Assembly (NCBI RefSeq): GCF_058153355.1
Contig: NZ_CM177019.1
DNA length: 64,000 nucleotides
Reading direction: 5' to 3' (one strand)
Part shown: piece after piece, positions 2,276-63,767 of the stretch
How the letters are laid out: every line of letters starts with the position of its first letter
Position numbering within the stretch: the stretch's first letter is position 1
Program-made: the position numbers and the translations under genes
Notes under the pieces: generated by a model
Seen by the model: the letters and a program-made list of their open reading frames with translations, nothing else
What the model was told of the DNA's origin: nothing
The model's database searches: none

Positions 2276-2961
2276 ATGTCGTTACTTGCACAACTGGATC
2301 AAAAAATCGCTGCTAACGGTGGCCTGATTGTCTCCTGCCAGCCGGTTCCGGACAGCCCACTCGATAAACCTGAAATCGTCGCCGCCATGGCATTAGCGGC
2401 AGAGCAGGCGGGAGCGGTTGCCATTCGTATTGAAGGTGTGACAAATCTGCAAGCCACGCGTGCGGTGGTGAGTGTGCCGATTATCGGGATTGTGAAACGC
2501 GATCTAGAGGATTCTCCGGTACGCATCACGGCATATATTGAAGATGTCGATGCGCTGGCGCAGGCAGGCGCGGATATCATCGCGATTGACGGCACCGACC
2601 GACCGCGTCCGGTGCCTGTTGAAACGCTACTGGCACGTATCCACCATCACGGTTTACTGGCGATGACCGACTGCTCAACGCCGGAAGACGGCCTGGCATG
2701 CCAAAAGCTGGGAGCCGAAATTATTGGCACTACGCTTTCTGGCTATACCACACCTGAAACGCCAGAAGAGCCGGATCTGGCGCTGGTGAAAACGTTGAGC
2801 GACGCCGGATGTCGGGTGATTGCCGAAGGGCGTTACAACTCGCCTGCTCAGGCGGCGGATGCGATGCGCCACGGTGCATGGGCGGTAACGGTCGGTTCTG
2901 CTATCACGCGTCTTGAACACATTTGTCAGTGGTACAACACAGCGATGAAAAAGGCGGTGCT

Positions 2962-2965
<4 letters not shown>
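2276..2965 (+). CDS. nanE: N-acetylmannosamine-6-phosphate 2-epimerase
   Basis: 229-aa ORF; stop overlaps nanK start (ATGA); nan operon synteny. Confidence 0.9.
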
Positions 2966-4298
<1,333 letters not shown>

Positions 4299-59959: not shown

Positions 59960-59990
59960 GCCCCGATTTTAACCATCGGGGCTTTTTTTC
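59958..59990 (+). terminator. deaD rho-independent terminator
   Basis: AGCCCCGAT-TTTAACC-ATCGGGGCT followed by TTTTTTT. Confidence 0.8.
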
Positions 59991-60069: not shown

Positions 60070-61314
60070 ATGGCAACACTAACCACCACCCAAACGTCAC
60101 CGTCGCTGCTTGGCGGCGTGGTGATTATCGGCGGCACCATTATTGGCGCAGGGATGTTTTCTCTGCCAGTGGTCATGTCCGGTGCGTGGTTCTTCTGGTC
60201 AATGGCGGCGCTGATCTTTACCTGGTTTTGTATGCTGCATTCCGGCTTGATGATTCTGGAAGCTAACCTGAATTACCGAATCGGCTCGAGCTTTGACACC
60301 ATCACCAAAGACTTGCTGGGCAAAGGCTGGAACGTGGTCAACGGCATATCCATTGCCTTTGTGCTCTATATCCTGACCTATGCCTATATTTCTGCCAGTG
60401 GTTCGATTCTGCATCACACCTTTGCAGAGATGTCGCTGAATGTCCCGGCACGGGCGGCGGGATTTGGTTTTGCACTGTTGGTGGCGTTCGTGGTGTGGTT
60501 GAGCACTAAAGCCGTCAGCCGGATGACGGCGATTGTACTTGGGGCGAAAGTTATTACCTTCTTCCTCACTTTCGGCAGTTTGCTGGGGCATGTGCAGCCT
60601 GCGACATTGTTTAACGTCGCGGAAAGCAATGCGTCTTATGCACCGTATCTGTTGATGACCCTGCCGTTCTGTCTGGCCTCATTTGGTTATCACGGTAACG
60701 TGCCGAGCCTGATGAAGTATTACGGCAAAGATCCGAAAACTATCGTGAAATGTCTGGTCTACGGTACGCTGATGGCGCTGGCGCTGTATACCATCTGGTT
60801 GCTGGCGACGATGGGCAACATCCCTCGTCCGGAGTTTATCGGCATCGCCGAGAAGGGCGGTAATATTGATGTGCTGGTACAGGCGTTAAGCGGCGTGCTG
60901 AACAGTCGTAGTCTGGATCTGCTGCTGGTCGTGTTCTCAAACTTTGCGGTAGCGAGTTCGTTCCTCGGTGTTACGCTGGGTTTGTTTGACTATCTGGCAG
61001 ATCTGTTTGGTTTCGATGACTCAGCTGTGGGACGCTTGAAAACGGCACTGTTGACCTTCGCACCGCCTGTTGTGGGTGGTTTGCTGTTCCCGAACGGATT
61101 CCTGTACGCCATTGGTTATGCTGGCTTAGCGGCTACCATCTGGGCGGCAATCGTTCCGGCGCTGCTGGCCCGCGCATCGCGTAAACGCTTTGGCAGCCCG
61201 AAATTCCGTGTCTGGGGCGGCAAGCCGATGATTGCACTGATTCTGGTGTTTGGCGTTGGCAACGCACTGGTGCATATTTTATCGAGCTTTAATTTGCTGC
61301 CGGTGTATCAGTAA
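60070..61314 (+). CDS. mtr: Tryptophan-specific permease
   Basis: 414-aa polytopic [36 protein letters not shown]…. Confidence 0.9.
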
Positions 61315-61322
61315 TTGAACGA

Positions 61323-61347
61323 GCCGGATGAGCAGTTTTCATCCGGC
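61323..61347. terminator. Hairpin between mtr and the convergent 176-aa ORF
   Basis: GCCGGATGA-GCAGTTT-TCATCCGGC; no strong T-run, possibly bidirectional. Confidence 0.5.
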
Positions 61348-61373
61348 AATATTCCATAGTGCGCGCGAGGTAA

Positions 61374-61904
61374 TCAAATATATCCTTGTTTATTATAAAG
61401 TTCTTCGGCAAGTGCTTCCCCATGTTCATCGAAAAATGCATTGGCGATCTTTAAATTATTCTCCTCAGGATTTGCCGTTATCCTGCTACCATTGGAATCA
61501 AATTCGAGCGCGATGGCGATCTCCGACCCCCACCAGTAATCATAAATTAGCGCAAAATTATTTTCCCCTGGCGTAATAAATTTCTCGATGCCTCGCACAC
61601 AGGCCATGAGTGGTATGAAGATTTCATAGCTCTCTGAGAGAAATATATGATCCATCGTGACTATCTGTGTTTCTTTATTAAAGTTGATATGTTCGGCATA
61701 AATATTCTTTTCACTTTCACCAGAATTACAAGCTGCAAGATTGTTAAGCATTTTTGCAGGATCGCCGTACAACCGCTGCTTCTCGATAAACCATGGCAAC
61801 CAGTCGTCATGGTCTTTGATATTTGTTGCTGGTGAATGGAAAAACTTCTCGAGGTTACTCTCGGTAATATGTGTATGAAGAAAAAAGGAAGCCGGTTCAC
61901 TCAT
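61374..61904 (-). CDS. Hypothetical protein (176 aa), no recognisable domain; first gene of the AT-rich islet between mtr and yhbW
   Basis: Uninterrupted ORF in AT-rich DNA with a plausible start context; no signal peptide seen; Trp/Tyr-rich (IYDYWWGSEIAIALEFD). Confidence 0.55.
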   Translation of the reverse strand: MSEPASFFLHTHITESNLEKFFHSPATNIKDHDDWLPWFIEKQRLYGDPAKMLNNLAACNSGESEKNIYAEHINFNKETQIVTMDHIFLSESYEIFIPLMACVRGIEKFITPGENNFALIYDYWWGSEIAIALEFDSNGSRITANPEENNLKIANAFFDEHGEALAEELYNKQGYI

Positions 61905-62062
61905 AATGATTTTCTCTGGTAATAAGTCGATTTGTTCATTTCTCTGTTTGGCGATGATAAAACGATGACTATTTTATAAAAGTACAGAACTGGACCTTTC
62001 ATCTATTTCCTATCATAGGAAAATATATACTTGAACTGGATCAGAATAAGCGGAATACGAAA

Positions 62063-62782
62063 ATGGGGTGTAAAGGATTACTCGCTATTGTATTGTTGAG
62101 CCTGTTTATCGCTTTTATTTTAAAAATTTTCTGGCCCACCCCGCACGATGAACATCTTTTCCTGCCCGTTGAAAAACCTTTCGTATCGTCTTTAAAAATC
62201 ATTCGCCCCGGCGACCAGTTATTTATCCGCATTCTGAAAGCGGAAGATAAGCTGGAACTGTGGGCAAGCATCAACAACAAGCCTTACGAACTCTATAAAA
62301 CCTGGACTATATGCGCGTGGTCTGGTGGCTTAGGGCCAAAACACAAACAGGGGGATGGTAAAAGCCCGGAAGGTTTTTATGCCACCAACAAAGGGTTGCT
62401 TAACCCAAACAGCCGCTATCATCTGGCATTTAATATTGGTTACCCGAATGCTTACGATCGGGCAAACGGCTACACCGGTGATTTCATTATGGTTCACGGA
62501 AACTGCGTTTCGGCGGGCTGCTATGCCATGACCGATGCTGGTATTGAAGAGATTTATCAACTGGTGGCGCAGGCGCTGAATAGCGGACAGAAGAGCGTGC
62601 CGGTGCATATCTTCCCGTTTGCGATGAACGACGAAAATATGCGCCAGGCGCAGGCATGGCCGGAATATAATTTCTGGCGTATGTTGAAGCCCGGCTATGA
62701 TTACTTTGAAAAAAATCGCCGATTGCCAACCATCAACGTTGAAAACCGGCGTTATAAAATCAGCCCAACAACTCTTCCTTAA
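62063..62782 (+). CDS. YafK/DpaA-like L,D-transpeptidase-fold (YkuD) protein with N-terminal membrane anchor or signal
   Basis: 239-aa ORF; hydrophobic N-terminus ([18 protein letters not shown]); YkuD catalytic signature [14 protein letters not shown] (His … Ser-x-Gly-Cys) and YafK-like motifs [32 protein letters not shown]. Confidence 0.65.
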
Positions 62783-63767
62783 CATCCATCGCCAGTTCAA
62801 ACGAATGCAGGCGCGCCTGGTGGTCGAAAATCTGCCCGTTAACCATAATCTCATCCGCGTCGGTTTCGCGCAGGATCGACTGCAAACCATGACGCACTTT
62901 CGCTTTATCACCCACCAGCGACATACTCAGCGCCTGCTGCACGCCATACTGCTCAGACGGTGACCAGAACTGATCCATATTTTGAATCGGTGGCGGCAGT
63001 TGCCCGGTTTCACCGCGGCGCAGCTTCACAAAGGCTTGCTGCATTGAGGTAAACAGAAATTCAGCGTCGCGGTTGCTGTCGGCGGCGATAATATTGATGC
63101 ACACCATCGCGTACGGTTTCTCCAGCCGCGCTGACGGTTTGAAGTTACTGCGATAAAGATGCAGCGCCTGGAATAGCATATCCGGTGCGAAGTGTGAGGC
63201 AAACGCGAACGGCAGACCAAGCTGCGCCGCCAGTTGTGCACTGTAAAGACTGGAGCCTAATAACCACACGGGGATTTTCTCGCCATAGCCCGGTACAGGG
63301 CGCACATGCGGATTGGGATCACGGGCGTCAAACCAGTCCACCAGCTCCGCGACATCGCGGGGGAAATTATCAATATCGCCGCTCATATGGCGACGTAGTG
63401 CCATCATTGTCCGTTGGTCACTACCTGGCGCACGACCCAGCCCCAAATCGATTCGCCCCGGATAGAGCGTATTGAGCGTACCGAACTGTTCGGCAATCAC
63501 CAACGGTGAGTGGTTTGGTAACATCACGCCGCCAGACCCCAGATGCAGCGTGGTGGTATTTGCCGCCAGATAGCCAATCAATACTGATGTTGCAGCACTG
63601 GCAATGCCAGTCATATTGTGGTGTTCCGCCAGCCAGTAGCGATGATAGCCGCGCTTTTCAGCCAGACGGGCGAGGTCGAGAGAGTGGGAGAACGCTTCTC
63701 GCGCTGAAGAACCTTCGGGGATGGGGGCCAGATCGAGTAGCGAAAACGCAATGGTTTTATCAGTCAT
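62760..63767 (-). CDS. yhbW: Luciferase-like (LLM class) flavin-dependent monooxygenase
   Basis: 335-aa [29 protein letters not shown]…; its 3' end overlaps the convergent YafK-like ORF by 23 bp. Confidence 0.85.

Follow-up and report, generated by a model that had tools for sequence, protein, structure and literature searches.

Stop-codon shift as the probable source of a 23-bp convergent overlap between a YafK-like gene and yhbW

A stretch of 64,000 nucleotides from contig NZ_CM177019.1 (RefSeq assembly GCF_058153355.1), referred to here as the window, contains an open reading frame (ORF) for a YafK-like protein (ldt), whose 3' end overlaps that of the core gene yhbW on the opposite strand (Table 1). 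The YafK-like gene is one of two genes in a short segment, or islet, that lies between mtr and yhbW and is absent from most Escherichia coli genomes. The overlap probably arose incidentally, when the stop codon shifted in a two-gene module that is old, retained in only some genomes, and arranged tail-to-tail with yhbW. In the starting state, the YafK-like gene would have ended with ...RYKIN-stop, its stop codon being supplied by the antisense of a Phe/Leu-Ser end of yhbW and giving an overlap of 8 bp. Beside a yhbW with a Leu-Gly end, this stop would have been lost, and a read-through of five codons to a TAA would have extended the overlap to 23 bp. Transcripts of yhbW (or ubiUV-yhbW) would end at a hairpin and U tract embedded in the YafK-like gene, and the YafK-like transcript presumably continues into yhbW in antisense until Rho terminates it.

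The 23-bp overlap described in the first-pass annotation is real, being found in both the ORF listing and the sequence, and the RefSeq annotation of other islet-bearing E. coli strains agrees. The Prokaryotic Genome Annotation Pipeline (PGAP) calls the same 23-bp overlap in E. coli strains R32_14_1F (99.2% identical to the window), AST217, 042, SCU-113, and GN25. Both ORFs are genuine coding genes with family matches, homologues, and RefSeq entries, and their opposite-strand 3' ends share bases. At its 3' end, the YafK-like frame on the plus strand reads ...AAA ATC AGC CCA ACA ACT CTT CCT TAA, and yhbW on the minus strand reads ...GTT AAG GAA GAG TTG TTG GGC TGA. First codon positions of ldt face first positions of yhbW, second positions face third positions, and third positions face second positions. 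This arrangement, phase 123:132, is the most frequent class among convergent overlaps of at least 5 nt, accounting for 49% in prokaryotes and 46% in E. coli (Lillo & Krakauer 2007, PMC2174442). Since 58 convergent overlaps have been counted in E. coli, with this phase the commonest, a convergent overlap of 23 bp is not statistically unusual. Such overlaps originate mainly when a stop codon mutates and translation reads on to the next one (PMC2174442). The YafK-like/yhbW overlap is an ordinary example of this known kind.

Comparison with related proteins reveals where the YafK-like gene formerly ended. In the protein alignment, five relatives terminate with ...RYKIN*, RYRIN*, or RYKFN*, five residues before the end of the window's protein, and across the loci of other lineages the protein stops at or just past the last conserved motif, with RYKIN*, RYRIN*, RYKFN*, or RYTLVTP*. 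The codon at the ancestral stop position is TAA or TGA in Superficieibacter, in the loci L011, L014, and L029 of another lineage, and in the Escherichia-like contig L013. In a gap-free comparison, Superficieibacter reads ATT AAC TAA ACA GCT CTT CTT TAA, versus ATC AGC CCA ACA ACT CTT CCT TAA in the window. The ancestral stop is the antisense of the last two yhbW codons, Phe/Leu-Ser (ACT-AAA, ACT-AAG, or ACT-GAA), which produces the 8-bp overlap. These yhbW codons are TTT/CTT-AGT (Phe/Leu-Ser) elsewhere and TTG-GGC (Leu-Gly) here, and yhbW ends with Leu-Gly (GCC-CAA in antisense) in every Escherichia yhbW examined. The window has CCA in place of the stop because its yhbW ends with Leu-Gly and not with Phe/Leu-Ser, and the ORF is therefore extended by five codons, up to the next TAA in frame. 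The overlap of ldt and yhbW is 8 bp in L004 (Superficieibacter), L011, L014, L029, and L030, and the two genes are separated by a spacer of 42 bp in the Klebsiella-type loci and of 131 bp in L013. The earlier suggestion that the true end of one ORF differs thus holds for the orthologues, which end five residues earlier, but not for the window itself, in which the earlier stop is absent and the ORF truly reaches position 62782.

The present stop codon also lies opposite yhbW codons, and the same TAA occurs in the islet-free strains K-12 and UTI89. Where the yhbW Val codon is GTG, as in NCTC9022 and SC477, the corresponding position reads TCA. In the SC477-type allele, which has no TAA, the YafK-like ORF extends to 259 amino acids (aa), the overlap reaches 83 bp, and PGAP calls a pseudogene. 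The C-terminal tail SPTTLP, comprising the last five to six codons, was found in no alleles outside Escherichia and those labelled Salmonella. Residue 234 is Ser or Thr, as set by a synonymous Gly codon of yhbW, and the SC477 tail is 20 residues longer. The tail varies with the yhbW allele because synonymous third positions of yhbW face second positions of ldt, and it is likely to be neutral or unconstrained since it tracks whichever yhbW allele adjoins.

Convergent overlaps formed by stop-codon mutation were reportedly described in Mycoplasma by Fukuda et al. In the present case, the orthologous stop is found at the homologous position, the extension runs to the first in-frame stop, and the tail is unconserved. 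As in the stop-codon-mutation model (Lillo & Krakauer 2007, PMC2174442), a stop was lost, the next in-frame stop lies in the antisense of the neighbour, the phase is 123:132, and the extension is short. Unlike in that model, the stop here already lay within an 8-bp overlap and was destroyed by the last two codons of the partner, not in free intergenic DNA.

The overlap leaves YhbW unaltered, because the same protein accession is found with and without the module. The protein, which matches NCBIfam PRK10508 with 733 bits (cutoff 540) and has the C-terminus ...MDVKEELLG, is WP_000130380.1 in K-12 and NCTC9022, which have no islet, as well as in R32_14_1F, 042, and SC477, which carry it. A change in the YhbW C-terminus, raised as a possibility in the first-pass annotation, is thus contradicted by the comparison with islet-free genomes, and the placement of the junction at or inside the yhbW 3' end was confirmed. 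From 62764 onward, the window matches islet-free K-12 and UTI89 base for base, so that the right-hand boundary of islet and core falls at 62763/62764, within the last yhbW codon. At the yhbW end, the only differences between the window and these strains are a stop codon of TGA versus TAG and a change at the third position of the final Gly codon. On the left, the likeness to islet-free genomes stops one base past the mtr stop (61315|61316). The last 23 nt of yhbW, which show six synonymous differences from NCTC9022, were considered as islet-specific, and this was ruled out by the identity with K-12 and UTI89 from 62764; the six differences read as ordinary yhbW polymorphism.

A predicted terminator of yhbW lies inside the YafK-like gene. 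On the minus strand, the yhbW stop is followed by the stem-loop CGCCGGUU-U-UCAAC GUUGAUG GUUGG-C-AAUCGGCG, then A and U7, which is antisense to YafK-like codons within the conserved motif EKNRRLP..VENRR. The earlier statement that separate terminators have no room at the overlapping ends therefore fails for yhbW. The fold of the hairpin has a z value of -2.2. In comparison with a null of 3,000 synonymous recodings using the codon usage of the window, the hairpin is stronger than expected in the window (p = 0.014), in L015 (labelled Salmonella enterica; p = 0.012), in other E. coli and Salmonella-labelled alleles (p = 0.012 to 0.013), and in L004 (Superficieibacter), L011, and L014 (p ≤ 0.0003). 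The same comparison was not significant where a spacer parts the two genes (p = 0.33 in L013 and 0.19 in the Klebsiella-type locus L007) or in Budviciaceae orthologues that adjoin atpC (p = 0.59 to 0.86). In nine aligned loci, 93.7% of the cells are paired, two compensatory pairs occur at synonymous sites, and the U7 tract is invariant in all nine. Hairpins of -14 kcal/mol or stronger followed directly by at least T6 occur at six sites in 128 kb (both strands of the window), among which the yhbW site ranks fourth, in the company of obvious gene-end terminators such as the textbook terminator after deaD, the positive control of the scan. The recoding null, the compensatory pairs, the invariance of the U7 tract, and the ranking in the window suggest that the hairpin and U7 tract do not simply follow from the protein sequence. 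A stem-loop and then a U tract after the stop codon is the sequence pattern of an intrinsic terminator, with modest support for structure beyond coding need. In E. coli, 19 of the 58 convergent overlaps have a rho-independent terminator inside the coding sequence of the partner (PMC2174442). As in those cases, a GC-containing hairpin and a U tract past one stop lie inside the codons of the other gene; unlike them, the terminator here is predicted, lies in a conserved motif, and shows synonymous compensatory changes across genera. With a terminator embedded in this way, the gene pair would need no intergenic spacer.

Islet-free E. coli strains have a spacer instead, a repetitive extragenic palindromic (REP)/bacterial interspersed mosaic element (BIME) sequence of 117 to 118 bp between the mtr and yhbW stops, which in K-12 folds with -54 kcal/mol (z = -5.6). 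The locus resembles other convergent genes with REP/BIME palindromes between them (bioRxiv 10.64898/2026.03.23.713779) in that this palindrome occupies the place of the module in islet-free strains. It differs in that no REP spacer adjoins yhbW in the window, where the embedded hairpin and U7 tract presumably take over the role of the spacer. In several islet-free strains, IS621 (IS110 family) is inserted in the REP spacer. The 42-bp spacer of the Klebsiella-type loci (L007:3700-3753, L031:612-655) contains a GC-rich hairpin, CAGGCGGC...GCCGCCTG, and the embedded hairpin is absent there. As a canonical bidirectional terminator, this spacer hairpin was rejected, the U tract being found on neither strand.

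Several points weigh against the account given here. The yhbW terminator is a prediction from sequence and folding. A generic promoter/terminator consensus scan found no enrichment of terminator-like sites (5 versus 3.0 ± 1.7 in shuffles) and picked a partial stem. The p values in the E. coli alleles are modest (about 0.013), and the motif RR...RR together with EKN itself favours a hairpin (null mean of -10.7 kcal/mol) and the A7 run. Few lineages were compared, and these are phylogenetically related; the null for other genera used the codon usage of the window. The Ser-to-Gly change at the YhbW end may have been a point substitution or a recombination with a resident yhbW allele, either being possible. 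In addition, the ratio of nonsynonymous to synonymous substitution rates (dN/dS) of the YafK-like gene within E. coli is 0.28 to 0.43, versus ≤0.01 in the flanks, and given this high ratio the gene may be under relaxed selection or in decay.

Downstream of the YafK-like stop on the plus strand, folding and scans found no hairpin with a U tract and no unusual structure (z = -0.65). If both genes are expressed, their mRNA 3' ends would be complementary over at least about 70 nt (62709-62782), and the pair would have the geometry of an excludon; the predicted 3' untranslated region of yhbW would lie wholly within the YafK-like coding sequence. Antisense mechanisms of the excludon type, with overlapping 3' untranslated regions, are documented in general (Sesto et al. 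2013; PMC7154746). The resemblance consists in the lack of a terminator between the convergent genes and in the predicted complementarity of the 3' ends; the difference is that reciprocal regulation is hypothetical here and that most strains can dispense with the partner gene. It is conceivable, though rather doubtful, that the hairpin and U7 tract form a dual-coding terminator of yhbW (or ubiUV-yhbW) under synonymous-site selection in several enterobacterial genera and that the YafK-like transcript, for want of a terminator, serves as an inherent antisense regulator of yhbW. The 3'-end processing of yhbW/ubiUV would then differ between strains that carry the module and strains that do not. 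It is improbable that the overlap itself is a selected excludon or antisense device, in which RNase III would cut the duplex or polymerases would collide, and cell-wall remodelling would be coupled to yhbW/ubiUV expression. Without a plus-strand terminator the YafK-like transcript should indeed enter antisense yhbW, the predicted yhbW 3' end has the location just described, tail-to-tail adjacency is kept across genera, and the mechanism exists in general; however, the overlap length is unconserved (-131, -42, +8, +23, and +83 bp), in about 97% of E. coli strains the partner gene is missing and YhbW is unchanged, and the YafK-like and YhbW products are not known to be functionally linked.

YafK/LdtF/DpaA is a YkuD-fold amidase that detaches Braun's lipoprotein from peptidoglycan. 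The YafK-like protein resembles it in having a YkuD domain (PF03734; 28.8 bits, gathering cutoff of 23.4) with a conserved His...Cys motif, in its alignment with the NCBIfam model LdtF_DpaA_YafK (NF040599; 252.1 bits, residues 50 to 235), and in its match to PDB entry 8ikr_A (E = 4e-65), which reaches residue 235. It differs in being an accessory protein that scores below the equivalog cutoff of 365, in having an N-terminal hydrophobic anchor, before the YkuD domain, that looks uncleaved, and in that its activity is predicted. By these scores it is a paralogue and not a LdtF/DpaA/YafK equivalog. Its homologues number in the thousands, and its own cluster has 1,047 members. The gene is probably functional under relaxed constraint, with a predicted amidase (YafK/DpaA-like) or transpeptidase activity. 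Alternatively, the YafK-like gene may be decaying, as a pseudogene or an unexpressed ORF in E. coli, and its 3' end and the overlap would then be an artefact of annotation with no biological meaning. The dN/dS contrast with the flanks, the drift of the stop, the pseudogene flag placed by PGAP on the SC477-type allele, and the loss of the module from most E. coli strains are compatible with decay. However, this alternative is unlikely, as only 3 of the inspected E. coli loci with the islet lack an intact 239-aa ORF, which is also present in Salmonella-labelled assemblies, residues H145, G146, and C153 of the His/Cys catalytic motif are invariant across 14 homologues, and the replacements within E. 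coli are mostly in the N-terminal 50 residues.

The islet is carried by 183 of 5,426 complete E. coli genomes, and the gene order deaD-mtr-(orf)-ldt-yhbW-ubiV-ubiU is also found in four other lineages (Table 1). E. coli 042 is 95% to 96% identical to the window in module and flanks alike. The identities for module and flanks are 91% to 93% and 88% to 93% in L013, 71% to 77% and 81% to 83% in Superficieibacter, and 68% to 72% and 80% in the Klebsiella-type lineage. No direct or terminal inverted repeats were found at the module borders (61316/62763). With regard to a mobile island, the segment has only two ORFs and no mobility domain, and no integrase, transposase, tRNA, or flanking repeat was found. 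Because its divergence ranks like that of the flanks and it has no mobility genes or repeats, the module appears to be an old resident that was lost or replaced in most E. coli strains. The reading of the islet as a recent insertion was not borne out, since the same module and locus occur in several genera with a divergence that tracks the flanks.

In two loci labelled Salmonella enterica (L015 and L016), the module is about 95% identical to that of E. coli and the flanking mtr and yhbW are about 80% to 85% identical. The mismatch density jumps at about 61200-61250 and 62841-62850, inside the mtr and yhbW 3' ends, the latter breakpoint lying about 85 nt inside yhbW. This pattern bears the signature of an inter-genus import by homologous recombination. 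The module has thus been exchanged with Salmonella-labelled genomes, and the overlap travels with it. In L013 (L013:1555-1720; Logan ERR4158237), the ancestral stop is kept and is followed by a yhbW 3' remnant of about 20 nt of foreign type (...ELFS*), the right part of a K-12-type REP spacer, and an intact yhbW. The remnant next to ldt indicates that the abutting arrangement predates the L013 rearrangement. A start of the L013 spacer at TCAGCGGT after the mtr stop, as in K-12, was rejected; in the MAFFT alignment, the join falls some 26 nt inside the spacer of K-12. That a foreign islet was recently inserted into the yhbW 3' end by horizontal transfer, with the junction creating the overlap, would be in keeping with the boundary inside the last yhbW codon, the contrast in identity between islet and flanks and the breakpoint inside yhbW in the Salmonella-labelled assemblies, and the foreign-type remnant in L013, but has a low probability, as the locus is shared with Superficieibacter, the Klebsiella-type lineage, and another genus at flank-like divergence, elements of mobility are missing, islet-free genomes hold a REP spacer and not an empty site, and the 8-bp overlap was already present in other genera.

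Table 1. Coordinates of the YafK-like/yhbW overlap, its neighbours, and the loci compared
Feature	Position or locus	Strand	Description
YafK-like ORF (ldt)	62063-62782	+	239 aa; ORF listing
yhbW	62760-63767	-	335 aa; luciferase-like monooxygenase, core gene; ORF listing
Convergent overlap	62760-62782	both	23 bp, phase 123:132
Ancestral stop position of the YafK-like gene	62765-62767	+	CCA here; gap-free DNA comparison and protein alignment
Present stop (TAA) of the YafK-like gene	62780-62782	+	antisense of yhbW Lys-Val codons (AAG GTT)
Hairpin of the predicted yhbW terminator	62717-62751	-	35 nt, -16.5 kcal/mol, with a stem of 8+5 bp and a loop of 7 nt; begins 8 nt past the yhbW stop
U7 tract of the predicted yhbW terminator	62709-62715	-	1 nt (A) after the hairpin; plus-strand A7 in GAA AAA AAT of F-E-K-N
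Terminator after deaD	59960-59989	+	GCCCCGAUUUUAACCAUCGGGGC then U7; about 45 nt past the deaD stop
mtr	60070-61314		
Islet	61316-62763		1448 bp; orf176 and YafK-like gene; missing in about 97% of the complete E. coli genomes
Hairpin between convergent mtr and orf176	61323-61347		GCCGGATGA-N7-TCATCCGGC; 9 nt past the mtr stop
orf176	61374-61904	-	"cytoplasmic protein", second module gene; divergent from the YafK-like gene
SC477-type allele	L020 (E. coli SC477, NZ_LR778152) 2361-3140; also LR778146, LR778142		three environmental E. coli isolates
Superficieibacter electus	L004		same mtr-ldt-yhbW locus
Further lineage	L011, L014, L029, L030		same mtr-ldt-yhbW locus
Klebsiella-type lineage	L007-L010, L031, L032		same mtr-ldt-yhbW locus
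Escherichia-like contig	L013		about 90% identical; same mtr-ldt-yhbW locus

The second gene of the module, orf176, had no match in Pfam, NCBIfam, or PADLOC. Its family is narrow, with 21 clusters found among 5.8 billion proteins. The modules of L011 and L014 lack the gene, and it stands alone elsewhere in Chania. The hairpin between mtr and orf176 is kept in Superficieibacter with a compensatory change from GGATGA/TCATCC to GGGTGA/TCACCC, and there is no clear U tract on either strand. Relative to 042, dS is only 0.009 over residues 51 to 232 of the YafK-like protein. For mtr and yhbW, dS relative to 042 and SC477 is about 0.2 to 0.26, and dN is near zero. The sequence comparisons point to a strongly mosaic, recombining mtr-yhbW locus.

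Nothing at the mtr-yhbW locus would surprise a specialist. If the overlap is, as is probable, a by-product of a stop-codon shift, it provides a clean documented example of overlap growth from 8 to 23 to 83 bp that follows changes in the terminal codons of the partner. The core protein is unaltered by the overlap, and the coding sequence of a neighbour can accommodate a terminator. As regards annotation, the sequence does encode an end at 239 aa, and the shift of the stop also lies behind the pseudogene call for the 259-aa allele. For the population genomics of E. coli, the mtr-yhbW interval has alternative old haplotypes, with either the two-gene module or a REP spacer, some of the latter with IS621.

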